64,000 bases of DNA from Minisyncoccota bacterium (GTDB taxonomy: Bacteria; Patescibacteriota; Minisyncoccia; Phycocordibacterales; UBA918): the NCBI GenBank assembly GCA_040879435.1, contig JBBDKG010000010.1, positions 2,019 through 66,018 of the forward strand. Direction: 5' to 3'. Both the position numbers and the translations under genes were made by a program. Position 1 is the stretch's first letter, and each line of letters starts with the position of its first letter. The notes beneath the pieces were generated by a model. That model did not search any database, was not told where the DNA came from, and saw only the letters and a list, made by a program, of their open reading frames with translations. Of this stretch, positions 29,453 through 53,422 are shown piece after piece.

Positions 29453-29509
29453 GCGGGTACTCGTGAATTAGAGACTTCCAAATACAGTCATTCTGTATGG
29501 TACCACAGG

Positions 29510-30727: not shown

Positions 30728-30776
30728 GAGAAACGTGTGTGAGAGTATCGTACCATGTGGCCATTCGGCCGGTAGT

Positions 30777-37478: not shown

Positions 37479-37483
37479 ACACT

Positions 37484-39103
37484 CTACTCTACCGTATAAA
37501 CATCAGCGGACAATGATTTCTGTTCGAGAATAAAAGACGCGAGCGTTTCGATAGGGACTGTGGCCTGGAGTGCCCCCCGATACAACACGAGACCGCTCGC
37601 CGGATCAAGCTCCCCCGCTCGTTCCCGAAGGAAACGGACCGGCTCAGTGTATAGGGTGGCATTGGCAGCAAGAAAGAGTGAGGTGTAGTAGCTACGGGTG
37701 AAGAGCAGTGATTCGATGGGTATCTCCATAACCTCAAAGACATATCGACTGGTCGCCGCCATATCATCGATCCTGCTTATTTCCGTCTCAAACCATGCGC
37801 TTTGCGCCCGCCAGAGCGTCACCATATCGATCAGGCGGTAAACGGTCGCCTCATCCAGGACCCCTGCCGGGTCGTCGGTGGTATTGAGAAATGCAGTGAC
37901 GTGCCCTATATACGCATCGTAGTCTGCCGCATTGAGCACACTGTCTTCCAGACGGATCTTTTGTTCATACGTGCGAGCTTGCGCAAGCGGCTCGGGAAGC
38001 TCCACAACATCATACGATGTGAGGAGTGGTTCAGAGTGAAGTGTCTCAAACATCCACTGCACTGTTCGTACTGTACCGGAATCAAGTCCGTAGTCGATGC
38101 AAAGGTATGGATTCATCTGCTGGTAGACGTACGTGGCCCCGGTCCTGGCAAGTGCAGTTTCGAACGGAGAGGTCTGTTGCGCCGTATCATGAAAAAGAAT
38201 CTCACTGACGGGAGTGAGCCAGAAGACCGGACGACCGCTATATCGTGACGACCGCCAAAAATAGAGATAGGTTGCTGACTGATCGACCGTGCATTCGGCT
38301 TCCGGTATATACACAAGTGGCAACGTATGTGGGTCACGGTCGAGATATGCAACTGGAGCGAACGGACCGGCGTCCACCATCACGGCGCGCAACGCCTCAG
38401 TTCGTTGAGATAGATCTTCCGCCGGTCGCGTCGCACGCACACTATTCTGATTTGTATACAGTGGAATAGCCGCGTCACACGCGCCACGTTCTGCGGCTGG
38501 GAGCAGGCACCGAAGACGCTGCATACTCTGTGCCAGCAGATCATCTGCACGAACATAGATATCTGCTAATGTCCCGGCGATGTACTCAAGCGATGTCGCC
38601 CCGGCCGGTGTGCTCAATTCAATGTCGGGAGCCTCGGTATACATAGCGTCTGAGAGTATCCGAGCGTCACTGCGCAGGAATGCAAGACTGCGCGCAAGCA
38701 GTACATGGTACCGAATTGCTCTCCAGTAACTCGGCTTCGCAATGAACACTCGCCTGGCGTCCTCGAGCTCAGGCAACGAAGTGAGAAACGCCATTGGATA
38801 CAACGCAGCATCAATGATCTCCTGTTCATGTTCGGCATACCGTCCCGTATATACATCGCGACTTTCTGCGAGCGCCTCGAGTGACCGTTCAAGTTCAGTC
38901 ACATTCGTTTCGGGGAGTGCAAGGATCGGGTCATACAGAGTTGTACGCCACACTGCATGTAGCCGCACAGGCACACTCCCGTCACTGTTGTCGAGATGCG
39001 GTTCGTACACGCGTGTAGCTAGAACAAACAATGTGACCGCAATACCGACCATCAATACAGCGAAGAGCGTGTAGCGGATGTTTCTCATATCACTGACGTT
39101 CAT
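37484..39103 (-). CDS. large membrane-anchored extracytoplasmic protein L1, unknown function
   Basis: Preferred start MNVSDMRNIRYTLFAVLMVGIAVTLFV (signal anchor). The ORF-track extension to 39295 overlaps the upstream gene and is Arg/Ser-rich junk. Confidence 0.55.
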   Translation of the reverse strand: MNVSDMRNIRYTLFAVLMVGIAVTLFVLATRVYEPHLDNSDGSVPVRLHAVWRTTLYDPILALPETNVTELERSLEALAESRDVYTGRYAEHEQEIIDAALYPMAFLTSLPELEDARRVFIAKPSYWRAIRYHVLLARSLAFLRSDARILSDAMYTEAPDIELSTPAGATSLEYIAGTLADIYVRADDLLAQSMQRLRCLLPAAERGACDAAIPLYTNQNSVRATRPAEDLSQRTEALRAVMVDAGPFAPVAYLDRDPHTLPLVYIPEAECTVDQSATYLYFWRSSRYSGRPVFWLTPVSEILFHDTAQQTSPFETALARTGATYVYQQMNPYLCIDYGLDSGTVRTVQWMFETLHSEPLLTSYDVVELPEPLAQARTYEQKIRLEDSVLNAADYDAYIGHVTAFLNTTDDPAGVLDEATVYRLIDMVTLWRAQSAWFETEISRIDDMAATSRYVFEVMEIPIESLLFTRSYYTSLFLAANATLYTEPVRFLRERAGELDPASGLVLYRGALQATVPIETLASFILEQKSLSADVYTVE

Positions 39104-40724
39104 GGTATGAAATAAATTCTTTGACGAGTTCCGTAAATGAAGTCTCCTCAATGACCGACGAGAGGTATACGTACGGGGTCTCTGCCCGCGGCAGCGAGAA
39201 CGGTTCGTGAACGTCACCGGGAGATACAGAAGCAAAGAGGAGCAGCCCGAACGGTACAAAGGCACTTCGGGAAAAATAGATGCGGTCGATCTCAACTGCG
39301 GGTATCACACCCGCATCAAGTGACGTGGCATTCGCTGCTTCAGAGACTGCGATACTAAATATCAACAGTCCTCCACCCTCGGTAAGCCGGTCAAATCGTA
39401 GTGCAAAATCTGCAAGCGCGGCATGGTGTTCTTGTGGAATCTCTCCTGTCCCCACATATCGCAGTGCGGTCTCTATATATGCACGTGCACGATCCTCCGC
39501 TACCGCTTCGGCTGTGATTGATTCAAGGGAACGAAGCGATTCGTAGTCAGTTGTCTCTTCAAGATATCCACTCAACTGATGCTCGAGAGCATACTGACGC
39601 ACATCCCGCGTGGTAAGGGCTGCACCAATATCACGCGAAGCGGCGGCGCATGCATAGTGCGAGAACGGCGATGCCGGCACGTACGTGTACCCACGGCCAT
39701 AGAAATAGCGATAGAACGGCACCTCCAGAAAGTCTTCAACACGGATCATCCTCACATCCGACCCCTCCTGTATGAGTGGGTGTGACCGGCTAGGAGATTC
39801 AACAACAACACGCGGGTCGACCTCAGGATTCAGGCACCAACTCCGTTCGAGCGTCACGTGTATGCGTTCATGATCACGACCTGTTTCGGTATCGATCATT
39901 TGATACAACCGTCCAACGTCCTGATACGTTGTATTAGCATTGGATACGGTCTCCGTATCTGACCATACGACCGGATATCGCAGCGCTGTCGCATCACACG
40001 GGGCAAACACGTCTGTCACGCAGCGGGTAAACGAGACGACATGTTGGCCAGCCGACCTGCTGGCGCCACGCAGCAGTTGCAACGTATCAAGTGTATTTTC
40101 CTTTGTGATGCTGTGCCGTTCGGTGACAACACGGATCGTGTCGTATCGGACAAACCAGCGGTACGCAGCTTCATACAAGATCGACTCACGTTGGTACGTG
40201 GCATCAAGACGCGATGCTGCATGAAGATAATCGGTCAGATGGTCCATTGTACTCTCTTCAAGAAACAGGCGACGTGCCTTTTCCGCTGCTCCTGCAGCGC
40301 GTAGCGTATCGCTCGGAAACAATGTATGTCGGACAAGAACCTTGCCGACTATTCCCGGTTCATATTCCGATAGTCGCTCCTGCACATCCTGTAACTGATT
40401 GGCTCCTTGCTCCAGATACTCTATATCGATTCCAGGAAGTGCAATCGATGGATTCACCCGAAGAACACGTTTTGCATACGCAAGCCGTAAGATCGTCATC
40501 TGGTCAGAGCGGCTAAGCGTTGTATCCGTGACAACGACCCCGCCGCGTACCTCGTACAATCGGTTCTGATATGCCACTGTTTCATACACACCCGCATCGT
40601 GGAGCATGTATGAAAATTGCTCAATAGAGCGCTGCTGCACAGCGATACCAAGGCCCCCCACAATAACGGCAAGTACAAGGCCGGTCGCAAACGTGCGTTT
40701 CGAATTTCCAAGAAAAGGCGCCAT
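39090..40724 (-). CDS. large membrane-anchored extracytoplasmic protein L2, unknown function
   Basis: 544 aa. N-terminal anchor MAPFLGNSKRTFATGLVLAVIVGGLGIAV, then a soluble domain. Confidence 0.55.
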   Translation of the reverse strand: MAPFLGNSKRTFATGLVLAVIVGGLGIAVQQRSIEQFSYMLHDAGVYETVAYQNRLYEVRGGVVVTDTTLSRSDQMTILRLAYAKRVLRVNPSIALPGIDIEYLEQGANQLQDVQERLSEYEPGIVGKVLVRHTLFPSDTLRAAGAAEKARRLFLEESTMDHLTDYLHAASRLDATYQRESILYEAAYRWFVRYDTIRVVTERHSITKENTLDTLQLLRGASRSAGQHVVSFTRCVTDVFAPCDATALRYPVVWSDTETVSNANTTYQDVGRLYQMIDTETGRDHERIHVTLERSWCLNPEVDPRVVVESPSRSHPLIQEGSDVRMIRVEDFLEVPFYRYFYGRGYTYVPASPFSHYACAAASRDIGAALTTRDVRQYALEHQLSGYLEETTDYESLRSLESITAEAVAEDRARAYIETALRYVGTGEIPQEHHAALADFALRFDRLTEGGGLLIFSIAVSEAANATSLDAGVIPAVEIDRIYFSRSAFVPFGLLLFASVSPGDVHEPFSLPRAETPYVYLSSVIEETSFTELVKEFISYHERQ

Positions 40725-40789
40725 ATCTGTTGATCGTAAGGCCGGTATACTGGCGGCAAAAGCGACTCTGCTATACTACCCAAACCAGT

Positions 40790-41896
40790 ATGGAAAAGAA
40801 AGACGATCTGCGGCCTCGGTTCCTGACCCTCCTCGAAGACATGTTTGCCCATCCTCCGAATGCTCGTGAGGTAAAACAATATCGCTTTATGCATACATCG
40901 GGAACCACCGGTATCCCGCTCCCCGTTGTTTGTACCGGTCGGCGAGACTGCAATCCGGCATTTTTAGGGCGTGGTACACGCACGCTCATGCTCTTCGGAT
41001 CGAAACCGCTTCGTCTCGATTTTGCACGCACGTTCGCTGACCCGGATACGCCCAAAAGCGACATCATGTTCTGTTCGCTCACTACGTCAGCACAAGAAAA
41101 CGAACGCATATGGCGTGAGTGGCGTCCGGACGCGATCGCCAGTCCTCCATCAGTTCTACTGCGATTTACACGCGCTTGGCCTGAAAACGCACGCGCGCAG
41201 GTTACCAGCGTCATTCTCGCTGGAGAGTTTGTGAGTAAGGTGGTGAGTGACATTATTCACGAGAGATTCCAGCATGCACGTATTGAGAACTACTACCCAG
41301 CGACTGAGACCGGACTCATTGGTACCCAGTGCTCCTTGTGCGCATGGAATGAATTCCATCCGGTCGACGGCGTTACGTTTTCCATACACGAACCGGACGC
41401 AGACGGACGTGGCGACCTTCTGCTCAGCAAGGAAAACCCGGGTGGCATTGCTTTCACCGACTACCGTGTCGGAGATGTTGCGAGCGAATCAAATCACAAT
41501 GGACACCGCGTCATCGTACTATACGGTAGACGGGGGTTTGACTACATCAAGCTTGCTGAGGCATTGCTGGTCAGAGAGGAGTTTGATCGTGTTGCAATGG
41601 AGCTCGAGCGCTATATCGACGACTACCGTGCCGAACTCACGACCCGTATCGAAGACGGTGTACCAAAGCATCACCTCACACTCCAGGTCATCGCAACGCC
41701 TGATGCCACACGAACAGGGCAAGCCCTTGCGGATCATCTCGCTGCCGAAGTGTCGTCCCGGCTTTTTGTCACACCACACTCCACGCTCAAGGATGCTGTG
41801 GAAAACGAAATATTTGCACCGCTCACCGTCTTGCTCGTAGATACGATCACACATACGACAGCGAAACCGCAGCGTCTGATTCGTGTGGACGCTTAG
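40790..41896 (+). CDS. adenylate-forming enzyme of the PaaK/CapK/F390 synthetase family, copy 2
   Basis: Preferred start MEKKDDLRP. AMP-binding motif FMHTSGTTGIPLPVV and a YYPATETG block. About 370 aa. Confidence 0.65.
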   Translation: MEKKDDLRPRFLTLLEDMFAHPPNAREVKQYRFMHTSGTTGIPLPVVCTGRRDCNPAFLGRGTRTLMLFGSKPLRLDFARTFADPDTPKSDIMFCSLTTSAQENERIWREWRPDAIASPPSVLLRFTRAWPENARAQVTSVILAGEFVSKVVSDIIHERFQHARIENYYPATETGLIGTQCSLCAWNEFHPVDGVTFSIHEPDADGRGDLLLSKENPGGIAFTDYRVGDVASESNHNGHRVIVLYGRRGFDYIKLAEALLVREEFDRVAMELERYIDDYRAELTTRIEDGVPKHHLTLQVIATPDATRTGQALADHLAAEVSSRLFVTPHSTLKDAVENEIFAPLTVLLVDTITHTTAKPQRLIRVDA

Positions 41897-41910
41897 CTCC
41901 CTTTCATACT

Positions 41911-42660
41911 ATGGACACCCAGATACTGAATCAATTGATCGAGCAACTCTATACAAGTGAGGAGGGTGGATTGTATCGCACATTCTGGGGCAAAAGACCG
42001 GAAGACTTCTCTACGCTGCCGCTACTCACTCCAGATATTCTCGCCAGCACGTCACTCTACGACCGCACATACAGTCGCGACCAGGGGCTGGTACGGTCCG
42101 TTGCGACGCGTGGCAGTGAGTTTCTCGTAAAGCGCTCGTTCGTTGATATTGCGCACGAGCATCTACCTGTACCATCTGGTTCGCGAGCACTTGTTCTCAC
42201 CACGAATCCAGACGATGCGCTCGAGTACGCACTGTGGTGTTACGAGCATGGTTCGATCCCCTATTATGGCGACGTTGGCAATGTGGAAGTGGCAGTGTTC
42301 TGTGCCGAACACTTCCGCACAAATGTACTCATCACTGACAATGTAACCATTGCATCGCTTATTACTGATGCTCGTATACCGAGTATGATCGAGTTGGTTG
42401 TCATCATTGATCGCGTACACTCTAGTGATCAAACACCGCTTCTTGCGACTGAGCGTGTACTCTACCTGCCTGAAACTGGGTGCCTCGGTCGCATTGAATC
42501 CACCACGGACGGATTGGTGCTACTTGAAGATGGCCGCGTGTTTGCTGAAGTACTGGATGACACACTTGTGGTGACAAAAGCGAACGCGACGACCCCACTG
42601 ATCCGGTACAAAACAGAAATCGCTGCCCGGGTGGAACGCGATACAATCTATCTCGTTTAG
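41911..42660 (+). CDS. hypothetical protein, partner of adenylating enzyme copy 2
   Basis: 249 aa, 14 nt downstream of copy 2 on the same strand. No recognisable motif. Confidence 0.5.
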   Translation: MDTQILNQLIEQLYTSEEGGLYRTFWGKRPEDFSTLPLLTPDILASTSLYDRTYSRDQGLVRSVATRGSEFLVKRSFVDIAHEHLPVPSGSRALVLTTNPDDALEYALWCYEHGSIPYYGDVGNVEVAVFCAEHFRTNVLITDNVTIASLITDARIPSMIELVVIIDRVHSSDQTPLLATERVLYLPETGCLGRIESTTDGLVLLEDGRVFAEVLDDTLVVTKANATTPLIRYKTEIAARVERDTIYLV

Positions 42661-42667
42661 CTCTGTA

Positions 42668-42901
42668 TTATTCTTCGTCGTAGAAACCGCTACAGCTTAC
42701 AAACATGAGCTTATGTTGGTTCTTCTTTTCATTGATGAGATTGCACTGCTTGGTATGCTCATTCGACGCAAGTATTTTTGGCTCCTGCCGCACCAAGAGT
42801 GCTCGAAATTCGTTGTAGTGCACTATCGCAAGATACGCTACTACCGAGAGCGCTACGCCAATTACTATAAGTAGTCTTATATAGAGTGATCGTCGTATCA
42901 T
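42668..42901 (-). CDS. small membrane protein
   Basis: 77 aa, one TM helix. Low confidence. Confidence 0.3.
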   Translation of the reverse strand: MIRRSLYIRLLIVIGVALSVVAYLAIVHYNEFRALLVRQEPKILASNEHTKQCNLINEKKNQHKLMFVSCSGFYDEE

Positions 42902-42915
42902 AATGCCATTCTAAT

Positions 42916-43430
42916 CTACCGATCAAACTGCGCAAGCAGTCCTGCCCATACGTCCTTCACGTACCCAACTATCCGCTCCCAGTACGAGACGATGCGATAT
43001 TTGAACGTGTCGGTGTACCCTTCAAACAAGTATTCTCCCTTCTCCACCAACGCATCAGGACCTTTCTCCACCTCGACCTCGATGGGGTTCGCGAGAATGT
43101 ATGGGTCGTGGCGGATGCCGGTGACCTGCCAGGAGACCTTTGCAGAAGGTGGGCCGCCGGCGATGGTGAAGCGGTTGTTCTCGATCTCTTCTTTTATATG
43201 TATATCAGGGGCAGGTGCGGTGATCCCTTTCACCTGATACCGGTAGTCTGTGTTCAGTGCTTCAAAATAACGCGGTAGCGTTACAACCGCCTCTCCCTGT
43301 GCGTTCAGAGTGACAACCCCGTCATACATGTTCTTCACATCCGGTGACTCGACGAACGAGTGATACAGGAGTTTGTTCTCCGGATCGAGTGGGTGGTCGA
43401 TGACGAATGAACCAGAGCCTTTTGAGAGTG
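42916..43430 (-). repeat. copy 1 of a ~400-500-bp near-identical dispersed/tandem repeat (the shared C-terminal-domain coding segment)
   Basis: For example, the 43031-43190 block ctccaccaacgcatcagg(a/g)cctttctccacctcgacctcgatggggttcgcgagaatgtatgggtcgtggcggatgccggtgacctgccaggagacctttgcagaaggtgggccgccggcgatggtgaagcggttgtt is repeated with 0-1 mismatches at 43623 and 44425. Boundaries approximate. Confidence 0.8.
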
Positions 43431-43584
43431 CACCGATAACGGACGCTTGATCAGCGATGCTGACCGCTCCGGAGAATGTTACCTGCGCGAGCGCACGCCC
43501 CCAGGCTGGACCAAACGCAATGATGGCCAATGCCCCCACGAGGAGTACCGAATATATGCTGTTTCGTAGCAGGTGTGTGTTCAT
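42916..43584 (-). CDS. secreted protein P1 with conserved ~170-aa C-terminal domain (FVIDHPLDPENKLLYHSFVESPDVKN...) shared with P2 and P3
   Basis: 222 aa. Signal peptide, then the shared domain. The shared region is nearly identical at the nucleotide level to the two upstream genes. Confidence 0.65.
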   Translation of the reverse strand: MNTHLLRNSIYSVLLVGALAIIAFGPAWGRALAQVTFSGAVSIADQASVIGALSKGSGSFVIDHPLDPENKLLYHSFVESPDVKNMYDGVVTLNAQGEAVVTLPRYFEALNTDYRYQVKGITAPAPDIHIKEEIENNRFTIAGGPPSAKVSWQVTGIRHDPYILANPIEVEVEKGPDALVEKGEYLFEGYTDTFKYRIVSYWERIVGYVKDVWAGLLAQFDR

Positions 43585-43587
43585 ACG

Positions 43588-44060
43588 CTATTCACTATCC
43601 TCTTCATACCCCTCATGGATATATTCTCCCTGCTCCACCAACGCATCAGGGCCTTTCTCCACCTCGACCTCGATGGGGTTCGCGAGAATGTATGGGTCGT
43701 GGCGGATGCCGGTGACCTGCCAGGAGACCTTTGCAGAAGGTGGGCCGCCGGCGATGGTGAAGCGGTTGTTCTCGATCTCCTCCTTTATATACAGGTCCGG
43801 CGCCGGTTCATCGAGCGCAGTGTATTGGTATCGGTAGTCACTGTTCAGTGCTTCAAAATACTCCGGCAGATCGACCACCGCCTCCCCGTTCTCGTTAAGT
43901 GTGGTCACGCCATCATAGATGTTCTTCACATCCGGTGACTCGACGAACGAGTGATACAGAAGCTTGTTCTCCGGATCGAGTGGGTGGTCGATGACGAATG
44001 AACCAGAGCCTTTGGAGATGCTGTTCGTGACCGCAAGGTTTGAGTTCATGGTCACGCTCC
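43588..44060 (-). repeat. copy 2 of the near-identical repeat
   Basis: See copy 1. Boundaries approximate. Confidence 0.8.
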
Positions 44061-44400
44061 CGGAGAAGGTAACATCATAGGTACTCTGATAGTACGTTTG
44101 GTAATAGGATTGGTAATAGGATTGGTAGTACGCCTGATAGTACGATTGATAGTAGCTTTGATAATACGACTGGTAATACCCTTGGTAGTATCCTTGATAA
44201 TACCCCTGGTAATAGCCTTGATAGTATCCTTGGTAGTAGCCCTGATAGTAGCTTTGGTAGTAGACTTGATAGTAGCTTTGACTGTACGCACCTGCATAAG
44301 ACGCGGATGCAAACATACCGACCAGCGTACATACGCCCACGATCAGAACGGCGACCAACTGCCTACGTCCCCTTATTCTGTTACTCATTCGTATCATCAT
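43588..44400 (-). CDS. secreted protein P2: signal anchor, (YYQG/S)n tyrosine-rich repeat, then the conserved C-terminal domain
   Basis: Preferred start MMIRMSNRIRGRRQLVAVLIV, which overlaps the P3 stop in another frame. About 24 consecutive YYQx tetrapeptides, then SKGSGSFVIDHPLDPENKLLYHSFV... Confidence 0.65.
   Translation of the reverse strand: MMIRMSNRIRGRRQLVAVLIVGVCTLVGMFASASYAGAYSQSYYQVYYQSYYQGYYQGYYQGYYQGYYQGYYQGYYQSYYQSYYQSYYQAYYQSYYQSYYQTYYQSTYDVTFSGSVTMNSNLAVTNSISKGSGSFVIDHPLDPENKLLYHSFVESPDVKNIYDGVTTLNENGEAVVDLPEYFEALNSDYRYQYTALDEPAPDLYIKEEIENNRFTIAGGPPSAKVSWQVTGIRHDPYILANPIEVEVEKGPDALVEQGEYIHEGYEEDSE
44095..44290 (-). repeat. 12-nt-period tandem repeat encoding (YYQG/YYQS)n
   Basis: On the + strand, ttggtaatagga / ttggtagtacgc / ctgatagtacga ... 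units, translating on the minus strand to YYQSYYQGYYQGYYQG... Confidence 0.85.
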
Positions 44401-44870
44401 AGTACCCCTCATGGATATATTCTCCCTGCTCCACCAACGCATCAGGGCCTTTCTCCACCTCGACCTCGATGGGGTTCGCGAGAATGTATGGGTCGTGGCG
44501 GATGCCGGTGACCTGCCAGGAGACCTTTGCAGAAGGTGGGCCGCCGGCGATGGTGAAGCGGTTGTTTTCGACACCACCACGAACGTGGAGCGTTGGTCCG
44601 GGCTCACCGATCGGCGTGAGGAGGAAGCGGACGTTCTCACGATCATTCAATGCTTCAAAGTAGTCAGGTAGCGTAACCACTGCTTCCCCGTTCTCGTTAA
44701 GTGTCGCCACACCATCATAGATGTTCTTCACATCCGGTGATTCCACGAACGAGTGATACAGGAGTTTGTTCTCCGGATCGAGTGGGTGGTCGATGACGAA
44801 GGTTCCGGAGCCCTTGGAGAGCGAACCAACCACAGAGAGGTTCTGGAGGAAGTCTGCACTACCGGAGATC
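44381..44870 (-). repeat. copy 3 of the near-identical repeat
   Basis: See copy 1. Boundaries approximate. Confidence 0.8.
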
Positions 44871-44995
44871 GACACCTGTGCAAAGGTGGCGAGCGGGTGA
44901 TACAACGTCGCGAGTGCCGTTGCACACACAACACCCGCGCAAAACGCCAGAAGGCGATGTCGAGGGATACGTAGTTGTTGCAGGTTGGTGATCAT
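44381..44995 (-). CDS. secreted protein P3 with the conserved C-terminal domain
   Basis: Preferred start MITNLQQLRIPRHRLLAFCAGVV at 44995, 5 nt after the stop of the giant upstream gene. Same C-terminal domain as P1 and P2. Confidence 0.65.
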   Translation of the reverse strand: MITNLQQLRIPRHRLLAFCAGVVCATALATLYHPLATFAQVSISGSADFLQNLSVVGSLSKGSGTFVIDHPLDPENKLLYHSFVESPDVKNIYDGVATLNENGEAVVTLPDYFEALNDRENVRFLLTPIGEPGPTLHVRGGVENNRFTIAGGPPSAKVSWQVTGIRHDPYILANPIEVEVEKGPDALVEQGEYIHEGYYDDTNE

Positions 44996-44999
44996 ATCC

Positions 45000-47900
45000 T
45001 TATTTCTCCTCTTCAAGGTCGAAGTGCGGCTTTGTATCCTGATCCGGTCGGATGTTGCTCCACTCCATCCAGTCGAAGCGGTTCGCCATGAACCGAGCCG
45101 ATACCTCACCCGGCGCGGTCGCCTGGATGACGAGCGCATTGTTCTTGAAGTCCTTGGTGTAGAACACTCTACCATCAAATCCGGCAGTGAGGGTAACGGC
45201 GAGTTTCTCCCACAGAACCCCGAAGTCCGTCACCTGGTAGAAGAGCCAGAGGTCGCTCGCCTTCGCGAGATCATTCCAACTGATGCGGTACTCGTAGTAG
45301 CCCGTTTCCTCGTTCCGCTCGGTGAGTTTGATGGTCTCGGACGCCTCCTCCTTCACACCGATCGCCGAGACACCGAACGTTGCGTAGTTCACACCACCGA
45401 TGCGGTAGATCGGGTCGATGGTCGCCACGTCAAGCTTTCCGTGAATGATGACGTCCCGCTCCACAATGATGTTACCGGTACCGGTCGGAGATGACGCCGG
45501 ACAGGAGCCCCCGGAACATGTCCAGATGTTCTCATCGTTGTATCTGACGTCCCCGCCCTGTGCGTTCACAATGAGGTCGCCGGCAGAGTCCACTTGGAAG
45601 TCAGCGTAACGGGTTGCGTCGTATGAGATACGGAACTGGTCGTCGGAGACGGTATCAAACACCTGCAAGCGCTTGTTTGGTGTGGTGGTGCCGATGCCGA
45701 CGTTGCCGCCAGTATCCAGAGTGAATGCCTGTCCATCATCAGCATGGGAACCAACCCCAATGATCAGACGGTTCGAGTTCCCTCCACGATCAAGCCCGAC
45801 ATATCCTAAACCACCAGCGCTATTTCCAAACGACACTTGCGGTGCAATAGCAGTACTTGCAGTAACGATATCAAGCAGGGTTGAAGGCGTCGTCGTCCCG
45901 ATCCCCACGTTCCCCGCGCTGGTGATACGCATACGTTCAGCCAAGGTGGAGGTGCCGGTTGGGACGGTAAAGAAGCGGAGGTCGGTAGCCACTGAGGTGT
46001 TGGTGTAGTTCTCCATGGCCAAGGCCTGGATAGAGGCTCCGGTTCTCCAGGCACTGGTACCGTAGCCCTGGAAGTTAAAGTACCCGAGGTCGTCTCCAGA
46101 CTGAGTGGCAGTTGGCGTGTCGGGGTTACCGCGTGAAGCGCCGAGACTCATTTCAGGAGCGGCGGCGAAGCCACCGAGGTCGGACGAGGTCCGGTTGGTG
46201 AAGCCTGAGTAGTTGTCGCTGGTAATGTTGAGATATCCGCCGTCGTCGTATTTCAAAGTAGAGGTGGCGGTGCCAAAGGAGTTGATGCTAAAAAGTGTGT
46301 CGTATGAACCGGCGCTGTTGGTCTGGTAGATGCTGAGTTTGCTGTTTGGTGTGGTGGTGCCGATGCCGACGTTGCCGTCCGAATCAACAAACACGCCCTC
46401 ATCATCACCATCACCAGACAGAAAGTTCGACCCGAGCGCAATATTTGCTCCAGTTCCGGTGAATACAAGATTTCCGGAGATCTCATCGCCCGTGTTTAGG
46501 ACGTAGTCGTCATCGACATCGATCGTGTTGCCGGTCCACGTAAGCCCGGTACCGGCGGTGATGCGGGTGCTTGGCGTGTTGAAGAAATTGTTCCAAGCGG
46601 TGGTTGATGCAGTTGTAGAGATCTCATACCCGGACGACAACGCAACGGAGTCACCGGAAAGCTCAAGACCAGGCGCGGACACAGCAAGGTTCGAGTAGTC
46701 GCTGATGTCGACAGCATCAGCATTCCACGTACCGGTCGTGATGGTACCAACGGTCGCAAGCGACGCAGCACTTGCAAGATTCGCCAGCGTATCGATCGCA
46801 GACTCAATGGTCGCTTCGGTCGTCGCGTCGAGCGCGTCGACATTCTGGAGCGTCAGCGTGCCAGACGAGTCGCTGAACGGTACCGATGCTCCGATCTGCA
46901 ACCCGCTGTTCGGCAGGATGAGCGTGCCGGTCATCGTGTCGCCCGTGTTCTGCACGAACGCATCCTGAATGAACGCCGCAGAGAGCGTCGTCGACGCAGA
47001 GATCGTTCCGGTGTTGTCTGTGACCAACACGCCGTTCGATAGAGTGGAAATGCTCACCGCACCGCTCGATGAGACATCGAAGTAGCTGGTGCCACTTGAC
47101 GACGCCACGTTGAATATATCAGCAGACTGTCCGGCAGTACCACGCACATCGAGCGTAGTCACGGTCGTGGTCGACGAATCATTCTGAATGAACGTCGGCT
47201 GGTTGAAGTCGAACCGGTCACGGGTCGCGTCCCACGTAATGAGTGCGTTCGGTACCACGACACCACGATAGAAGATGAGACTGATCGACTCCGCATCAGC
47301 GCTCGCGTTGTCGCTGTTGATGGTGAAGTTGTTCGACTGCGTACCGGAGATCGAGGTCGAAGCAGCTGAAATGTTGTTGGCGGTGATGGTGTCGAAATAG
47401 CCGTCGTTCCAGAAGAACGCCGGTGAACCGATGTCATAGGTGGCGTTGATGGTCGGGATGAGGTCGGAACCGATGCTTGAGTTGATTACAAGCGTACTTG
47501 CAGACGACGTCCCGACCACGTATGAATCGCCGGTGACGGTGAGGTCGCCGTCGATCGATACGTCACCCGACGCTGAGATATTGCCGAAGGTGCTCGTCGC
47601 GTTCGCATCACTCGCTACAAACCTTGACGCCGTGATCACTCCGCTTGCCACACTGTCCCCGACCGTGAGGTGCGTGATACTGGTCGTCGCAAGCGTCGAC
47701 GTTCCCGTGACGGTGAGTTCACCGAATGTACCGAACGATGCAAGCAGGTTCGTAATGAAACTATTGGTCGAAGTAGCGTTCGTTGATACGAGGTTGGTAC
47801 TTGTGGAATTCGTTGCAATAAGGTCGGTCACGGTCCCGCTGGTGATCGTCGCATCCGTGATAGTCGTTGTTGCAAGCGTGGCGCTGCTGGTCACTCTCAA

Positions 47901-48830
47901 GTTCGTACTGGTTGCATTCGTTGCGACAAGGTCGGTTATCAAACCACTGGTGATCGTCGCATCCGTGATAGTGGTGGTCGCGAGTGTTGAGAGGCCGAGT
48001 ACGGTAAGGGCCGCGTCGACGATGAGCGAGTCGGTCAATCGCGCACTGCCGACCACATCAAGCGCATAGAGCGGAGTCGAGGTGCCGATACCGATACGAT
48101 TCAGACTTGAATCGATGAAGAGCGTGCTGTTGTCGAAGTTAAGGTCGGCGGCGTTGGTGTCGAGATCGAACGTAGTGGTCGCGTCGACCGTGAGTGCGTC
48201 ACGGAATTCAGTGAAGTCGAGTGAGTCCGCCGTCACATGAGAACCATTGAGCGTGCTGGTGGACACCTCACCGAGCCAGTTGACGAACAATAGGCTGTTG
48301 CCGAGCGTGCCCCTGATATCGTCGAGTGTGAAGGATCCTTGAATGACCGTATCGACCGTCACATTGTCAATGGCACCACTCAGATCATCACGGTTGTCGC
48401 TATCCTGTGTGCCGCTTTGTCGGCGCAGTCTCGCGACCTCGTCCTCAAGGTCAGCGATGTCCTCTTGGATATACGTGATGGTCTGCTGATTGAAGATGAC
48501 TGCATTCAGTGCCTCATCCACCTTGCGCAACATCCCTATGAGGCCGGAGGAAGAGGATGCCGGTGCAGCTTCTTCACGGATCACGATCTCTTCACGAATG
48601 ATAGTCGCCGGAGCCGGTGACTGCGGTAGTGCGGTGTCGCCGGAGCTCGTGTTGTTTCCGTCGCCGATAATCAAGCAGCCACCAACTTCAGAGAGTGCAG
48701 GAGTCGCAAGGGAGCAGAAGACAGCGGCCACTCCGGGTATCGTTCCGAGTTTCTGGTACATGGCCGCCGTCAGTCCCCCGAGCACCAGAAAGGCTACGAT
48801 CATACTGATAATTCCCCTACGTGTAGGCAT
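45000..48830 (-). CDS. giant (1276 aa) membrane-anchored fibre-like surface protein with tail-fibre-type repeats
   Basis: N-terminal anchor. Repeated G-N-V-G-I-G-T-T-T-P motif (IGIGTSTP, NVGIGTTTPNSKL, GNVGIGTTTPSTLL, GNVGIGTTTPNKRL), as seen in phage tail-fibre-like / beta-helical adhesins. Internal 36-aa tandem repeats (ATTTITDATITSG...). T/S/N-rich throughout. Confidence 0.8.
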   Translation of the reverse strand: MPTRRGIISMIVAFLVLGGLTAAMYQKLGTIPGVAAVFCSLATPALSEVGGCLIIGDGNNTSSGDTALPQSPAPATIIREEIVIREEAAPASSSSGLIGMLRKVDEALNAVIFNQQTITYIQEDIADLEDEVARLRRQSGTQDSDNRDDLSGAIDNVTVDTVIQGSFTLDDIRGTLGNSLLFVNWLGEVSTSTLNGSHVTADSLDFTEFRDALTVDATTTFDLDTNAADLNFDNSTLFIDSSLNRIGIGTSTPLYALDVVGSARLTDSLIVDAALTVLGLSTLATTTITDATITSGLITDLVATNATSTNLRVTSSATLATTTITDATITSGTVTDLIATNSTSTNLVSTNATSTNSFITNLLASFGTFGELTVTGTSTLATTSITHLTVGDSVASGVITASRFVASDANATSTFGNISASGDVSIDGDLTVTGDSYVVGTSSASTLVINSSIGSDLIPTINATYDIGSPAFFWNDGYFDTITANNISAASTSISGTQSNNFTINSDNASADAESISLIFYRGVVVPNALITWDATRDRFDFNQPTFIQNDSSTTTVTTLDVRGTAGQSADIFNVASSSGTSYFDVSSSGAVSISTLSNGVLVTDNTGTISASTTLSAAFIQDAFVQNTGDTMTGTLILPNSGLQIGASVPFSDSSGTLTLQNVDALDATTEATIESAIDTLANLASAASLATVGTITTGTWNADAVDISDYSNLAVSAPGLELSGDSVALSSGYEISTTASTTAWNNFFNTPSTRITAGTGLTWTGNTIDVDDDYVLNTGDEISGNLVFTGTGANIALGSNFLSGDGDDEGVFVDSDGNVGIGTTTPNSKLSIYQTNSAGSYDTLFSINSFGTATSTLKYDDGGYLNITSDNYSGFTNRTSSDLGGFAAAPEMSLGASRGNPDTPTATQSGDDLGYFNFQGYGTSAWRTGASIQALAMENYTNTSVATDLRFFTVPTGTSTLAERMRITSAGNVGIGTTTPSTLLDIVTASTAIAPQVSFGNSAGGLGYVGLDRGGNSNRLIIGVGSHADDGQAFTLDTGGNVGIGTTTPNKRLQVFDTVSDDQFRISYDATRYADFQVDSAGDLIVNAQGGDVRYNDENIWTCSGGSCPASSPTGTGNIIVERDVIIHGKLDVATIDPIYRIGGVNYATFGVSAIGVKEEASETIKLTERNEETGYYEYRISWNDLAKASDLWLFYQVTDFGVLWEKLAVTLTAGFDGRVFYTKDFKNNALVIQATAPGEVSARFMANRFDWMEWSNIRPDQDTKPHFDLEEEK

Positions 48831-48984
48831 CAGTTCATTTTACCAAGAAGACCTCCTTTAAACCTCCAAAAAACGGCTATTTTTGTGCATAAGTTTGCAA
48901 TTTCTATGGTCTGATTTGTCCCCTGTTTTGCTGTCTCGCTCCCGTTGCATTCCCTGTGTGCGTGTGGTATGCTCGACCCCACTT

Positions 48985-49227
48985 ATGGCAACAAACGTTC
49001 AGGTAGAGAAGAACAATAACGAATCAAGCGCGAACGTGATCCGCCGCTTCACCAAGCGGGTTCAGGGAGCGGGCATCGTTCGCCGTATCCGCGACAGCCG
49101 CTACTACTCCCGCATGAAGAGCGAGAACGTCCGCAAGGAGGCCCGTCTCAAGAAACTCGCGAAGAAGACCGAATACGATCGCCTATACAAGCTCGGCAAG
49201 GTGGAGGAGACACGAAAGCGACGATAG
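48985..49227 (+). CDS. rpsU: 30S ribosomal protein S21
   Basis: 80 aa from the ATG at 48985. IRRFTKR..GAGIVRRIRDSRYYSRMKSENVRKEARLKKLAKK matches the S21 pattern (LRRFKR...AGVL.E.RRREFYEKP...RKR). The ORF-track N-terminal extension is unlikely to be real. Confidence 0.7.
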   Translation: MATNVQVEKNNNESSANVIRRFTKRVQGAGIVRRIRDSRYYSRMKSENVRKEARLKKLAKKTEYDRLYKLGKVEETRKRR

Positions 49228-49271
49228 AGAAAGTGCCCCACAAGGGGCGCTTTTCTTGATACACTACCCCC

Positions 49272-49661
49272 ATGTCCACGACCATTTCAGCAACGGCGCG
49301 CTCCTACCCGAAACAGCTTCCGTATGCGGCTATCACAGATGCCGTCTTGGGAAAACGCTACGAACTCTCACTCGTCTTTGTTGGTCGCACGCGTGCACAA
49401 ACGCTCAACAAAACCACACGAGGAAAATCGTATGTGCCAAACGTACTTTCCTTCCCACTCACTGACGCAACCGGCGAGATATACATCACACTAGAGGTTG
49501 CAAAACGTGAAGCGCGGAAATACAACATGAGCCAGAAGACATACATCGCGTACCTCTTCGTCCACGGACTGCTTCATCTCAAAGGGTACGACCACGGGGA
49601 GCAGATGGAGCGTCTTGAACAGAAGTTCCTTGCTGCATTCAAACTATCCTCCCGAGATTAG
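49272..49661 (+). CDS. ybeY: rRNA maturation endoribonuclease YbeY
   Basis: 129 aa. Metal-binding HGLLHLKGYDH motif. Confidence 0.85.
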   Translation: MSTTISATARSYPKQLPYAAITDAVLGKRYELSLVFVGRTRAQTLNKTTRGKSYVPNVLSFPLTDATGEIYITLEVAKREARKYNMSQKTYIAYLFVHGLLHLKGYDHGEQMERLEQKFLAAFKLSSRD

Positions 49662-49719
49662 CGGGATTTCCACGTTTTTCCCGAAATTTCCCAAAGGGTC
49701 AGTGCTATAATCAAAGGGC

Positions 49720-50889
49720 ATGAAGGACCGTATCATAGCGGGAATAGATGTTGGTACCTACCAGGTGAAGGTGGTGATCGCATCGCTACCCAAAAACCAA
49801 AAGGACCATTCCCTCCCACAGATCATCGGCACCGGCTACGCAGAGAGCCGCGGTCTTCGTAACGGGTATATCGTGAACGAAGCTGATGCGACGCGGAGTG
49901 TGAAGAGTGCGGTGATGCAGGCGGAGAAGGCTGCGGGTGTCGAGGTAAAGCGGGCGTACGTCTCGATCGGCAGTATCGGACTCGATGAGGTGTTCTCGCA
50001 CGGTGAGGTCATCACCACACGTGCCGACTCTGAGATCACTCAAACCGACGTAGACAAGGCAATGCAGGATAGTGAGGAACGTATCATCGATCACATTCCG
50101 AACCGCAAGATCCTCCACGCCATTCCCCTCTCCTTTTCTATCGACGGTGAGTCTGTCCTCGGACGCCCTCACGGCATGCACGGCACCAAGCTCGAGGTCG
50201 AGTCACTCTTCGTCACCAGCTTCGAGCAGCATCTCAATGACCTCATCAGTACCATTGAATCGATCGGTGTGAGTGTTGAGGATGTGATGGCGGCGCCGCT
50301 CGCCGCAAGTTTTGTGATGTTAACGAAAGCGCAGAAGCGGGCAGGTTGTGTATTGGCGAACATCGGTGCTGAAACAGTTTCTATCGCGGTCTTTGAAAAT
50401 AATACGCCGGTCTCACTCAAGGTATTCCCGATCGGTTCGAACGATATCACGAACGACATCGCGCTCGGACTCAAGATCCCGCTCGAGGAAGCTGAGAAGA
50501 TCAAACGTGGTGGTATGACCAGTGCCAACTACTCCAAGCGCAAGCTCGATGAGATCATCGGCGCACGTCTCACGGACATGTTCGAGCTCATCGACGCACA
50601 TTTGCGGAAGATTAAACGTGACGGACTTCTGCCGGCAGGCATCATCATCACCGGTGGGGGTTCGGGACTTGCGACCATACAGGAACTTGCACGCACCGCT
50701 CTTCGTCTGCCGTCGCGCATCGCCACACTTGACCCCGGGCAGAACGGCAAAGTACGTGACGCTTCGTGGGCGGTCGCGTATGGTCTTTGTATGTGGGGAG
50801 CAAGCGATGAGGAGGAAGGTGGTGGTGTGGGAATAGCCAAGAAAGCACGGAACTCGCTCGTCGACTGGTTCAGTCAGTTTCTGCCGTAG
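49720..50889 (+). CDS. ftsA: cell division protein FtsA
   Basis: 389 aa. Actin-fold start (IAGIDVGTYQVKVVI), phosphate-binding loops, and gene order directly upstream of ftsZ. Confidence 0.9.
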   Translation: MKDRIIAGIDVGTYQVKVVIASLPKNQKDHSLPQIIGTGYAESRGLRNGYIVNEADATRSVKSAVMQAEKAAGVEVKRAYVSIGSIGLDEVFSHGEVITTRADSEITQTDVDKAMQDSEERIIDHIPNRKILHAIPLSFSIDGESVLGRPHGMHGTKLEVESLFVTSFEQHLNDLISTIESIGVSVEDVMAAPLAASFVMLTKAQKRAGCVLANIGAETVSIAVFENNTPVSLKVFPIGSNDITNDIALGLKIPLEEAEKIKRGGMTSANYSKRKLDEIIGARLTDMFELIDAHLRKIKRDGLLPAGIIITGGGSGLATIQELARTALRLPSRIATLDPGQNGKVRDASWAVAYGLCMWGASDEEEGGGVGIAKKARNSLVDWFSQFLP

Positions 50890-50915
50890 ATGACGCGGAA
50901 ATGAGAGTGATGCAG

Positions 50916-50939
50916 ATGCGGCGTGCGCCGCATTTTTTA
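50916..50939 (+). terminator. intrinsic terminator between ftsA and ftsZ
   Basis: ATGCGGCG-tg-CGCCGCAT followed by TTTTTT. Confidence 0.7.
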
Positions 50940-51167
50940 TTACTCAAGGCTCTCAATTGCGTACTACACCCGCCTTCGTCAATTACACGAAAGTCGTGAA
51001 TGTCAATATGGTGACAGCACTCGCAGTAACTAGTATTATGGTGCACAAGTACGGAGGTGACCGGTCCGGTCTGCGCGCAGACCGCCATCGTGTCGTCGGT
51101 GCGGTTCTCTGTGGGAAGAGGACCTCGTCCGTTTTGGAGGTATTAACTAACGCTTGCACGCTCGCCT

Positions 51168-52406
51168 ATGGAACAAATTAAATCAGACGTTGAATCATTC
51201 GCACGCATCCGCGTTGTCGGTGCAGGAGGATCCGGCTGCAATGCCGTCAACCACATGGTCAACGCGAAGGTCAAGGGGGTCGAATTCATCGCGGTCAACA
51301 GCGATGCACAGGACCTGCACAACTCACTCGCAAAGAAGAAGATTCACATCGGAAAGAATCTCACCCGTGGACTCGGCGCAGGTGGTAACCCGGACATGGG
51401 ACGTCGTGCTGCTGAGGAGACGCGTGAAGAGATCGCGAATGCCCTCAAAGGTTCGGACATGATCTTTGTGACCGGTGGTATGGGCGGCGGCACCGGTACC
51501 GGAGCTGCACCGGTGATCGCCAAGATCGCACGGGACAGCGGCGCACTCACGGTCGGAGTGGTCACCAAGCCGTTCCTCTTTGAAGGACAGGAACGCATGC
51601 GCCTTGCGCTCCAGGGTATCGAGGAACTCTCGAAGGAGGTTGACGCCCTCATTACCGTCCCGAACGACCGACTTCTTGCCATTGTGGACAAGGATACGTC
51701 AGTGAAGAACGCGTTTGCGATGTGTGACGATATCCTCAAGCACGCGGTCGAAGGTATCTCGGACCTCATCACGATGCCGGGTATCATCAACGTCGACTTT
51801 GCCGATATCCGTTCCGTCATGGAGAACGCCGGTTCTGCACTCATGGGTATCGGAACTGCATCAGGCGAGAAGCGTGCTGAGGAAGCTGCTCGTTCAGCCA
51901 TCAACTCCCCGCTCCTTGAGATCTCCATCACCGGTGCGAAAGGTGTACTCTTTGCGATCGCTGGTGGCGACGATCTTGGTATGCTCGAGATCCAGGATGC
52001 AGCGCGTGCCATCACTGAGTCCATCGACCCACACGCGAAAGTGATCTTCGGTGCGATCCGCGATGAGAAGCTCAAGAAGAATGAAGTGAAGGTGACCGTT
52101 ATTGCGACCGGCTTCCCTGATTCCGAGGTACGCCCATCAGACCGGTCGGTCGTCCGCGCGCCACGCGACGCTGACGCAGATGAAGAGCGGGTCGAAGCAC
52201 GCGCCGGCGGGCGGATATTCAACTCGCTCGGTGGTAGCCGTCGTGAAGAGCCGGTCGAGGCGGAAGCAAAACCGGAACCGACGGTCGCTACCAAACCTGA
52301 ACCGACGTCAAAGCGCGAACCGAAACCGGTGGATCCCATCGACGAGGAGGACGATGACGACTGGGGAGCGGTTCCGGCATTCCTTCGGAGGAGCAAACTG
52401 AAATAG
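51168..52406 (+). CDS. ftsZ: cell division protein FtsZ
   Basis: 412 aa. Tubulin signature GGGTGTGAAP, N-terminal GAGGSGCNAV, and an acidic/Pro-rich C-terminal linker. Confidence 0.95.
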   Translation: MEQIKSDVESFARIRVVGAGGSGCNAVNHMVNAKVKGVEFIAVNSDAQDLHNSLAKKKIHIGKNLTRGLGAGGNPDMGRRAAEETREEIANALKGSDMIFVTGGMGGGTGTGAAPVIAKIARDSGALTVGVVTKPFLFEGQERMRLALQGIEELSKEVDALITVPNDRLLAIVDKDTSVKNAFAMCDDILKHAVEGISDLITMPGIINVDFADIRSVMENAGSALMGIGTASGEKRAEEAARSAINSPLLEISITGAKGVLFAIAGGDDLGMLEIQDAARAITESIDPHAKVIFGAIRDEKLKKNEVKVTVIATGFPDSEVRPSDRSVVRAPRDADADEERVEARAGGRIFNSLGGSRREEPVEAEAKPEPTVATKPEPTSKREPKPVDPIDEEDDDDWGAVPAFLRRSKLK

Positions 52407-52413
52407 GACATCC

Positions 52414-52450
52414 AAAACATCTTCCACTCGGAAGATGGTTTTGTTTTTAT
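52414..52450 (+). terminator. intrinsic terminator after ftsZ
   Basis: CATCTTCC-actc-GGAAGATG followed by GTTTTGTTTTT. Confidence 0.65.
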
Positions 52451-52498
52451 GGTATCCTATGCACGTTGTACTTGAAACTAACTACGTACTGAATTGCT

Positions 52499-53422
52499 AT
52501 GTTTGACCTCATTATCATCGGCGGCGGACCTGCCGGCGTCGCAGCGGGCGTATACGCCTCACGAAAACGACTGAACTCACTCCTCGTCACGAAAGAATGG
52601 GGCGGCCAGAGTAGCGTATCTCCTGATATCCAGAACTGGATCGGTACGCCGTCGATCTCCGGCACAGAGCTCGCTGAGAATCTGAAAACACACCTCCTCA
52701 CCTACGCCGACGGTGTCGTTGAGATCAACGAGAACACCACTGCAACGAATATTGAAAAAAGCGGCGACGGGTTCTCGGTCACACTTGAGGATGGGAGTAC
52801 AGCAGAAGCACGTGCCGTTCTTATCGCAAGTGGTTCGAAGCGCCGTCGCCTTGATGTTCCGGGTGCCGATAAGTTCGAGCACAAGGGAGTCACATACTGT
52901 GCGAGCTGTGACGGGCCGATGTTCTCCGATCAGGATGTTGTGGTGGTCGGTGGCGGGAACGCAGGATTTGAGACTGCGGCGCAGCTCTTGGCATACGCAA
53001 AGAGCGTGACGCTCATCCACAAGAACGATGCATACAAGGCCGACCCGGTCACGGTCGAGAAGGTGCTGGCGCACGAGAACATGACCGGCATTCTGAATGC
53101 CGAGATCACAAAAGTGACCGGCGAGCAGTTCGTTACCGGCATTTCATACAAGGATGCGAAGACCGGAGAGGAGCATGACCTCCCTGTTGGTGGTGTATTC
53201 GTCGAGATCGGAATGATCCCGAATACTGAGTTCGTCGAAAACGCAGTGGCGCTTGATGAGTATAAGCGGATCGAGATCGACCCGTGGACGCAGCAGACCG
53301 CTACCCCTGGCATCTGGGCGGCCGGCGATTGCACCAATATCCGCTACCATCAGAACAACATCTCAGCGGGTGATGCGGTCCGTGCGCTTGAGGATATCTA
53401 TGTTCATTTGAAGACGAAGTGA
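52499..53422 (+). CDS. trxB: thioredoxin-disulfide reductase
   Basis: 307 aa. FAD site IIGGGPAGVAAGVYA, redox-active CASCDG, and NADPH site VVGGGNAGFETA. Confidence 0.9.
   Translation: MFDLIIIGGGPAGVAAGVYASRKRLNSLLVTKEWGGQSSVSPDIQNWIGTPSISGTELAENLKTHLLTYADGVVEINENTTATNIEKSGDGFSVTLEDGSTAEARAVLIASGSKRRRLDVPGADKFEHKGVTYCASCDGPMFSDQDVVVVGGGNAGFETAAQLLAYAKSVTLIHKNDAYKADPVTVEKVLAHENMTGILNAEITKVTGEQFVTGISYKDAKTGEEHDLPVGGVFVEIGMIPNTEFVENAVALDEYKRIEIDPWTQQTATPGIWAAGDCTNIRYHQNNISAGDAVRALEDIYVHLKTK

Follow-up and report, generated by a model that had tools for sequence, protein, structure and literature searches.

The window analysed here, a 64,000-nucleotide stretch of contig JBBDKG010000010.1 (assembly GCA_040879435.1, a Minisyncoccota bacterium), carries on its minus strand a gene for a giant fibre-like protein followed by three small genes, P3, P2 and P1 in that order, whose products share a C-terminal domain. 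The question raised by this locus is what three such closely similar proteins do behind a fibre gene. We lean towards the answer that P3, P2 and P1 represent types A, B and C in a triplet of 'stalk-less' fibre heads that is ancient and syntenic, that the heads would be exported and would trimerise, and that they stand behind a giant trimeric fibre resembling the mosaic adhesive trimer (MAT) fibres of Bdellovibrio. All four genes are co-oriented, and a sequence-only reading of this stretch had placed them in one operon. The spacing bears this out: the ATG of P3 lies 4 nt after the TAA stop of the giant gene, the ATG of P2 lies inside the end of P3 (20-nt overlap) and P1 starts 3 nt after the P2 stop, with a GAGG-type Shine-Dalgarno motif upstream of every start. 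The four genes probably form a tight, translationally coupled operon. A promoter and terminator scan of positions 42400-49300 returned fewer sites than were found in shuffled controls.

The three small proteins are 68% identical overall in a common alignment. The same reading had described a near-identical C-terminal domain of about 170 aa; the identity is real, but the domain is shorter, running from SKGSG to GEY over ~135 aa (~155 aa including the neck), and the nucleotide identity of the three genes is a patchy mosaic and not uniform. The longest stretches shared without a mismatch measure 128 nt (P1/P2), 119 nt (P1/P3) and 164 nt (P2/P3). The ~170 nt at the 5' side of the domain are 82-86% identical among the three genes, and the ~75 nt in its middle only 45-68%. 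When the variable sites were permuted 20,000 times, runs of the observed length were reached zero times (p<=5e-5). Identical residues in the 3' segment are written with the same codon in 45-48 of 47-48 cases, and the identity therefore exists at the DNA level and not at the protein level alone. The N-terminal parts do differ, as had been claimed, but the supposed variable modules come down to signal peptides and a Tyr/Gln spacer of low complexity. The signal peptides are of the Sec type, with an R/K n-region, a hydrophobic core of ~17 aa and predicted cleavage between ALA and Q, TFA and Q, and SYA and G. After GEY, 11 residues follow in P3, 10 in P2 and 37 in P1, where they make up a tail on which the sequence-only reading was silent. 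What truly differs by type is a beta-hairpin in the middle of the supposedly constant domain.

For comparison between genomes the domain was split into an N flank, the middle hairpin (M) and a C flank. Within genomes, the N/M/C identities were 0.91/0.42/0.99 in the source contig, 0.90/0.53/1.00 in locus L001 and 1.00/0.49/0.99 in locus L002, while the C-flank identity between these three genomes is only ~0.83. The codons behave in the same way, with the same codon used in the C flank in 41-48 of 48 cases in L001 and 47-48 of 47-48 in L002, against 15-19 of ~40 between genomes. The hairpins, on the other hand, have their closest relatives in the same-type genes of other genomes; for P2 the nearest is L002_3, at an identity of 0.69. 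Over nine genomes, the identity to the same type in another genome exceeds that to another type in the same genome in the hairpin only, and the flanks show the reverse, so that the hairpin groups by type and the flanks by genome. The boundaries of the unconverted island are the same in L001 and L002. The tracts end at this same island, 26-28 codons long, and such a common limit speaks for selection acting on the hairpin. A circular contig of 617 kb, L001, has 112x coverage, and since it shows the same mosaic at this depth the phenomenon is not an assembly artefact in general. On these identities, the near-identity is the product of gene conversion within the operon that continues and homogenises both flanks, at synonymous sites as well, and that has gone on independently in three genomes. 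Recent duplication or ongoing gene conversion had been offered as its origin; conversion is upheld by the codon and segment identities, but recent duplication does not agree with A, B and C types that are fixed and orthologous.

Strong homogenisation is not seen in L003, L013, L018 and L023, which keep the A/B/C triplet. Nor is anything comparable found in the tandem full-length paralogs of Acidobacteriota and other phyla, and the conversion pattern is therefore lineage-specific and not a property of the domain. Loci of Acidobacteriota and Lysobacterales (L054:6880-17166, L071:6904-14224 and L052:6604-12787) hold two to four tandem fibre genes of 700-1080 aa that end in the same domain, 66-92% identical, without sharp conversion blocks.

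The proposal that related genomes be searched for the same cassette was followed with a hidden Markov model (HMM) scan of 23 Patescibacteria loci. Exactly three tandem genes were found in 17 of them, four genes in one, and two genes with the third ~5 kb off in two, the rest being cut by contig ends. A giant with a homologous C-terminal domain is present on 16 of the 23 loci and directly adjacent in 8, and on the contigs of three homologs a giant of 1156-2220 aa is followed by the three small genes. Each position has its own marks. Type A, in position 1, is marked by the hairpin Y[LF]xT[PA]IG, type B, in position 2, by the hairpin YQFFxxD and usually the end GECxFEPLC, and type C, in position 3, by the hairpin YQ[LV]KPIG together with a Tyr-rich N-terminal spacer and a C-terminal tail, which is compatible with an amphipathic helix in 10 of 14 cases. 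The source contig shows A, B and C hairpins in this order, one Tyr-rich spacer and one amphipathic tail: P3 is of type A (FLLTPI), P2 is B-like (YQYTALDE) and bears the spacer, and P1 is of type C (YQVKGI) with the tail and no spacer. The spacer thus lies on the B-like gene here and on the type C gene in most other genomes. A similar reshuffling of spacer and tail is seen in L002, and one tail per triplet is kept throughout. The hairpins, endings, spacers and tails are diagnostic: one gene of the triplet cannot stand in for another, and the A-B-C order is fixed; on the same comparison, the giant and the A-B-C cassette are ancient and of fixed order across Paceibacteria/Parcubacteria. The Tyr-rich spacers (YYQ, YGQ, YSQ, QYQY), found on the third triplet gene in most genomes, are conserved in composition and not in sequence.

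The sequence-only reading could not place the shared domain in any known family, and Pfam and NCBIfam gave no match either, even at E<=1. The PHROG matches of P1-P3 were phrog_17490 and phrog_28536, both of unknown function, with a non-significant match to a tail protein. A search of PDB sequences with a single protein and with the family profile found no related chain and no solved structure in the family. The domain is nevertheless far from isolated. Its close homologs number 2,732, mostly Patescibacteria proteins of 180-260 aa, and an exhaustive profile search retrieved 15,831 cluster representatives (clusters at 50% identity), with E<1e-30 for 7,232. P1-P3 match the family HMM at E 6e-71 to 8e-75. 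Their match to this 'IDHP...HSFVES' family covers all ~135 aa of the domain and includes its invariant positions (G, F, H, P, L, H, E, Y, G ... R, E, K). In 143 of the 153 top representatives (median length 481 aa), no more than 40 residues separate the domain from the C-terminus. The N-terminal parts of the long homologs are mutually unrelated and include Laminin_G_3, PA14/GLEYA, DUF7483, Gly-rich and beta-helix modules, and the neck pattern of P1-P3 matches the last turns that precede the domain in these proteins.

A scan with one genome per species showed that the domain ends proteins of 400-1250 aa in phyla outside the Candidate Phyla Radiation (CPR), with 55-60% identity kept; the carriers include Acidobacteriota, Bacteroidota, Chloroflexota, Planctomycetota, Verrucomicrobiota, Zixibacteria, Calditrichia, Lysobacterales and others. 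This breadth, which extends to phages, speaks against the role in episymbiont attachment specifically that had been suggested for it. In the Arthrobacter phages Mufasa8 and Sonali, gp19, called a 'minor tail protein' and encoded behind the tape-measure gene as the final tail gene, has the domain in its C-terminal half. In cyanophage S-TIM54 it terminates a 510-aa protein flanked by virion structural genes, and among IMG/VR loci it is C-terminal in 42 of 42, in open reading frames (ORFs) of 286-1525 aa. Residues H70, H81, E85, R166, E179 and K182 are invariant, phage homologs included, and one may speculate about a metal or ligand site on a three-fold axis. The shared domain is a fibre-terminal head of the phage type, uncurated yet not rare. 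Its conservation across phyla fits capping, trimerisation or a universal ligand better than host-specific recognition. Full-text literature searches with the motifs HSFVESP, IDHPLDP and FVIDHP found no papers, and the literature on CPR fibres and adhesins had nothing on this family; in the searchable literature, a conserved A/B/C triplet of stand-alone heads, made uniform by conversion around a protected hairpin, is not described.

Two further occurrences of the domain may be mentioned. IMG/VR contigs labelled 'GVMAG' (L084:3346-6426 and L085:3-1355) encode proteins of 1026 and 450 aa that end in the domain with 57-61% identity to the window, which reflects either bacterial contamination of the bin or genuine viral use. 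At L004:6001-7836, in a 3.1-Mb genome, a 611-aa protein combines two Laminin_G_3 modules with the domain; the surroundings resemble a conjugative element (TraG/TrwB-like ATPases, a relaxase, a DNA methylase and ThsB-TIR), a setting which hints at horizontal spread of such proteins.

A link of the shared domain to the tips of fibres and tailspikes, also part of the sequence-only reading, is supported both by the phage tail-protein homologs and by the predicted fold. In the AlphaFold2 model of P3, residues ~90-170 form a beta-sandwich with pLDDT 96-98. The fold matches come from predicted models and have modest scores. The best structural matches, for the head as well as for the C-terminal domain of the giant, are the cyanophage Pam1 tailspike (7EEA), the R2 pyocin fibre (6CL6/6CU2), AP22 gp53 (4MTM), the Klebsiella K1 lyase (7W1C) and LKA1 gp49, and Foldseek with the head model returned the same phage set together with the Sf6 tailspike and the receptor-binding protein (RBP) of TP901-1. 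The domain is in this way structurally similar to solved C-terminal beta-sandwiches of phage tailspikes and tail fibres. The most conserved stretch of the family, KGSGxFxIDHPLDPxNKLLYHSFVESP (residues 60-90), is the worst modelled in the monomer (pLDDT 57-61), and the equivalent stretch of the giant C-terminal domain is likewise poorly modelled as a monomer. The low monomer confidence of the most conserved stretch may be taken as a hint of oligomer-dependent structure.

Three other candidates for the shared domain were examined and rejected. An S74 chaperone is not in agreement with the absence of a match to Pfam PF13884 and of the SDxxxK motif in the alignment. The C-terminal sorting domain of the type IX secretion system was set aside as no match to Por_Secre_tail (TIGR04183) was obtained and the family, unlike a domain confined to Bacteroidota that bear this system, also occurs in Patescibacteria, Acidobacteriota, Chloroflexota and phages. 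An assembly protein of the Tfa/gp38 type was discarded in the absence of any tail-fibre assembly match in Pfam, NCBIfam or PHROG.

The giant itself begins with a transmembrane (TM)-like helix followed by a helical segment and contains internal direct repeats. Besides its sequence match to the solved fibre Bd2439 (see the table below) it matches Bd1334 (8oml, E 3.2e-7), and its residues 863-1097 match the PHROG tail fiber family phrog_9942 (E 3e-19). The last ~165 aa form a separate beta-sandwich in the model, with the same top structural match as the shared domain and an overlapping list of further ones, and Pfam gave no S74 match for the giant. Two of the features which define a MAT fibre, a beta-helix shaft homologous to the solved MAT fibres and a C-terminal S74 domain or an alternative, independently folding tip, are found in the giant, the former by sequence match and the latter as the predicted beta-sandwich end. 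At the level of the models, the giant C-terminal domain and the shared domain are of the same fold class, and from this overlap in fold class a common descent of the two is possible. Two related giants (L001:3607-7929 and L003:798-7460) open with an HTH_17-like motif, KEYLSxxEAxxxxGYxxDYVSxLARxGKI, before the TM segment; in L002:3732-4523 this part is a separate gene of 263 aa, and the giant of the source contig is without it. It is odd for an extracellular fibre to have a cytoplasmic head that resembles a DNA-binding part.

It is tempting to combine these observations into the following picture. P1-P3 would be exported via their Sec signal peptides, and the heads would form trimers by means of the neck and first strands, which are ultra-conserved (KGxGxFxIDHP..LxHSxVE). 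They may stand next to the long fibre, and act together with it, as short knobs displayed on the cell surface. The type-specific hairpin would make the functional difference between them, in ligand or partner specificity, and the core of the trimer, common to all types, would be built from the homogenised flanks. Each triplet's Tyr-rich spacer and single amphipathic tail may act as tether or contact elements. Several points weigh against this picture. Fast evolution is normal for fibre tips, yet the domain is 55-60% identical across phyla. Types A and B are left without an evident anchor after signal-peptide cleavage, unless they are joined to C, to the giant or to the wall. The giant lies 5-7 kb from the triplet in L010, L011 and L016 and was not seen on the locus in L008, L018 and L023. 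Finally, BLASTP of the shared domain against the giant C-terminus gave no match, and hhalign of both profiles gave a co-linear match of 47 columns with a probability of 4% and E 0.01.

Alternatively, the A, B and C chains could form one 1:1:1 heterotrimeric head, in which the hairpins break the symmetry or set the chain register while spacer and tail serve the whole complex. We consider this a serious but tentative alternative, on the unlikely side. All three types co-occur in fixed order in every locus with enough sequence, and overlapping or abutting genes are consistent with translational coupling and equal dosage. Moreover, one amphipathic tail per triplet is found even where spacer and tail have changed place between hairpins of type B and type C, as in the source contig and L002, and such moves between chains would be nearly neutral only if the chains share one complex. 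A heterotrimer would also provide for types A and B, which are without an anchor of their own, and homogenised flanks would keep its interfaces compatible. On the other hand, no natural two- or three-head fusions occur among the 153 representatives, the domain ends single long proteins in other phyla which must homotrimerise, and L006 has four genes (A, B, C, C); three kept paralogs are equally compatible with three homotrimers of different specificity. The extended form of this idea, an obligate 1:1:1 heterotrimeric head with a core kept identical by gene conversion, symmetry-breaking hairpins of ~27 codons protected by selection, one Tyr-rich tether and one amphipathic distal helix, acting as a core cell-contact device of Paceibacteria, is less probable again.

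The sequence-only reading had seen in the small proteins exchangeable tip, adaptor or chaperone subunits that dock on the C-terminus of the giant. A place just downstream of a fibre gene is classical for phage tail-fibre assembly and adhesin genes, a homologous giant is frequent on the loci, and NS74 MAT fibres are said to have tips that fold on their own and can be swapped (PMC10769870). We nevertheless find this role improbable, for the giant already ends in its own conserved beta-sandwich of the same fold class, and P1-P3 match no Tfa, gp38 or S74 family in Pfam, NCBIfam or PHROG and, with export signals and a neck of their own, resemble whole fibres in miniature. The loci with a distant or unseen giant listed above tell against it as well, and in thousands of proteins the domain is covalently C-terminal and not a separate subunit. 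We give even less credence to the domain being a base or anchor module that ties variable N-terminal modules to an envelope component, for example peptidoglycan, the small proteins then being anchor-only. A conserved C-terminus behind a very variable N-terminus with lectin-like modules (Laminin_G_3, PA14) is indeed expected of an anchor, as is the extreme cross-phylum conservation, and the amphipathic tail of type C could lie on a membrane. However, the domain is at the C-terminal, virion-distal end of phage tail proteins, the giant is held by its N-terminal TM helix so that its C-terminus of the same fold would be distal, the domain occurs in monoderm-like CPR and in diderm phyla, which have no common surface-exposed envelope polymer, and it matches no known wall-binding family in Pfam or NCBIfam. 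That the near-identical blocks come from a triplication that took place very recently, or are an artefact in which assembly collapsed or expanded a repeat, is hardly credible, although identical runs of 119-164 nt and a source metagenome-assembled genome that is a single contig record of short-read type would permit it. Every copy has a different in-frame hairpin closest to same-type genes elsewhere, the mosaic recurs in L001 and L002 with genome-specific flanks, and the A-B-C triplet exists without homogenisation in the four loci named above. Very recent triplication was rejected because of the orthologous A/B/C types across genomes, and an assembly artefact as the general explanation because of the mosaic on the circular L001 contig. 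The triplet of exported, trimerising heads behind a MAT-like fibre thus remains our preferred reading.

The nearest known counterpart of the giant is the MAT fibre of Bdellovibrio bacteriovorus, in particular the NS74 subgroup (Caulton et al. 2024, PMC10769870). The PDB entries 8ol4 (Bd2439) and 8oml (Bd1334) are MAT fibres (PMC10769870). MAT fibres have independently folding, swappable capping tips, a beta-sandwich which takes the place of the S74 chaperone, and a conserved, beta-rich N-terminal domain of ~130 aa right after the signal peptide (PMC10769870). The giant resembles them in the sequence of its beta-helix shaft and, by analogy, presumably in a trimeric state, and like the NS74 MATs it ends in a beta-sandwich and not in an S74 chaperone. 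The source bacterium, if its lifestyle is what we assume, is also likely to depend on cell contact, as Bdellovibrio does. The giant differs in its N-terminus, which reads as a TM helix and a helical segment, preceded in relatives by the HTH_17-like part, and MAT loci have not been described with stand-alone head triplets.

The shared domain agrees with the C-terminal domains of tailspikes and tail fibres in its terminal position after a trimeric beta-helix and in having true sequence homologs in phage tail modules, and differs from them in that it also occurs as a stand-alone protein, predicted to be secreted. In size and layout P1-P3 are comparable to the lactococcal TP901-1 RBP (163 aa, with an N-terminal helix, a beta-helical neck and a trimerising head). 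The Foldseek matches to lactococcal RBPs are weak (~140 columns, E ~0.2, TM 0.25-0.34), the N-terminal helix of P1-P3 is a Sec signal peptide instead of a baseplate-docking shoulder, and there is no phage context. The peptidase S74 domain is likewise a conserved C-terminal module on very diverse fibres, where it nucleates trimer folding, but here the fold class is a beta-sandwich and there is no evidence of autocleavage. Complement C1q has A, B and C chains encoded by three tandem paralogous genes, which form a heterotrimeric beta-sandwich head. The three tandem paralogs with one head fold and conserved type identity recall this arrangement by analogy only; there is no homology, and C1q/TNF folds were not among the fold matches. 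Concerted evolution of tandem surface-protein paralogs by gene conversion is a general phenomenon. The present case shows its usual signs, with synonymous identity within genomes, divergence between genomes and sharp tract boundaries, but whereas surface-gene conversion usually shuffles variable cassettes, here the scaffold is homogenised and a short specificity island is excluded.

Spread over phages and no fewer than ten bacterial phyla, in ~16,000 clusters (50% identity), the domain is among the larger uncurated fibre-end domains, and its cross-phylum conservation is odd for a fibre tip. To our knowledge, Paceibacteria/Parcubacteria have no cultured model and no known attachment mechanism, and the MAT-like giant with its A/B/C triplet is a concrete candidate for cell-cell contact in this group. 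The conversion on both sides of the 26-28-codon island in three genomes amounts to a natural experiment that marks the residues of paralog non-redundancy. If the heterotrimer were true, it would be an unusual asymmetric bacterial fibre head derived from a pan-bacterial and phage fibre-terminal domain.

Features of the fibre-head cassette (positions in the window)
Feature	Position	Strand	Description and basis
Giant fibre gene, 1276 aa	45000..48830	minus	N-terminal TM/signal-anchor helix, short helical segment, Thr/Ser/Asn-rich beta-helix repeats, C-terminal beta-sandwich; ORF, PHROG and PDB matches
MAT-like beta-helix segment of the giant, aa 865-1000	45831..46238	minus	phmmer against PDB: 8ol4_A (Bd2439 residues 837-1107), E 4.8e-12
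Giant C-terminal domain, aa ~1112-1275	45006..45497	minus	Motif GKLDVxTIDPxY...SDLWLFYQ...GEVSxRxxAxRFD; conserved in giants of related loci
P3, 204 aa, type A head (hairpin VRFLLTPIG)	44381..44995	minus	Signal peptide, ~20-aa neck, head domain 44417-44818; 100% identical to NCBI WDZ93_01560
P2, 270 aa, B-like hairpin YRYQYTALDE	43588..44400	minus	Signal peptide, Tyr/Gln-rich spacer, head domain 43621-44016
P2 (YYQ[GS])n spacer	44077..44301	minus	Tandem Repeats Finder: 44098-44281, period 12 nt, 13-15 copies
P1, 222 aa, type C head (hairpin YRYQVKGI)	42916..43584	minus	Signal peptide, neck, head domain 43030-43425, C-terminal tail; NCBI WDZ93_01550
P1 C-terminal amphipathic tail	42919-43029	minus	37 aa; hydrophobic moment 0.59
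Gene-conversion tract, 119-nt block same in all three genes	43061-43179 (P1), 43652-43770 (P2), 44448-44566 (P3)	minus	Exact-match search
Type-specific unconverted hairpin island	43180..43251 (P1), 43771-43842 (P2), 44567-44644 (P3)	minus	Two beta-strands and loop in model (P3 residues ~118-145)

Directly upstream of the giant gene, on the plus strand at 48883-53422, are rpsU, ybeY, ftsA, ftsZ and trxB-like genes, and the cassette is therefore in a core chromosomal context and not in a prophage. Right downstream of the triplet, ~5.4 kb (37484-42901) are absent from this place in related loci. This segment contains ORFs of 603 and 544 aa without assigned function that overlap each other by ~200 nt, an AMP-binding-like gene (40730-41896), a 249-aa gene (41911-42660) and a 77-aa TM ORF (42668-42901); farther out are a second AMP-binding-like gene (35407-36666) and a 272-aa gene (36660-37478). 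BLASTP found no paralogy among the genes of the 35407-42901 region.

Farther downstream, at 27232-33022 on the minus strand, five TM-anchored, Cys-rich proteins (470, 339, 405, 335 and 413 aa) are encoded, on which Pfam is silent except for a weak cupredoxin match. They are orthologous (up to 45% identity, E 1e-112) to a paralog series of ~350-530 aa that lies directly downstream of the A/B/C triplet in L001, L003, L009 and L013. As the orthologs of this series adjoin the triplet elsewhere, the functional cluster may be much larger than four genes.

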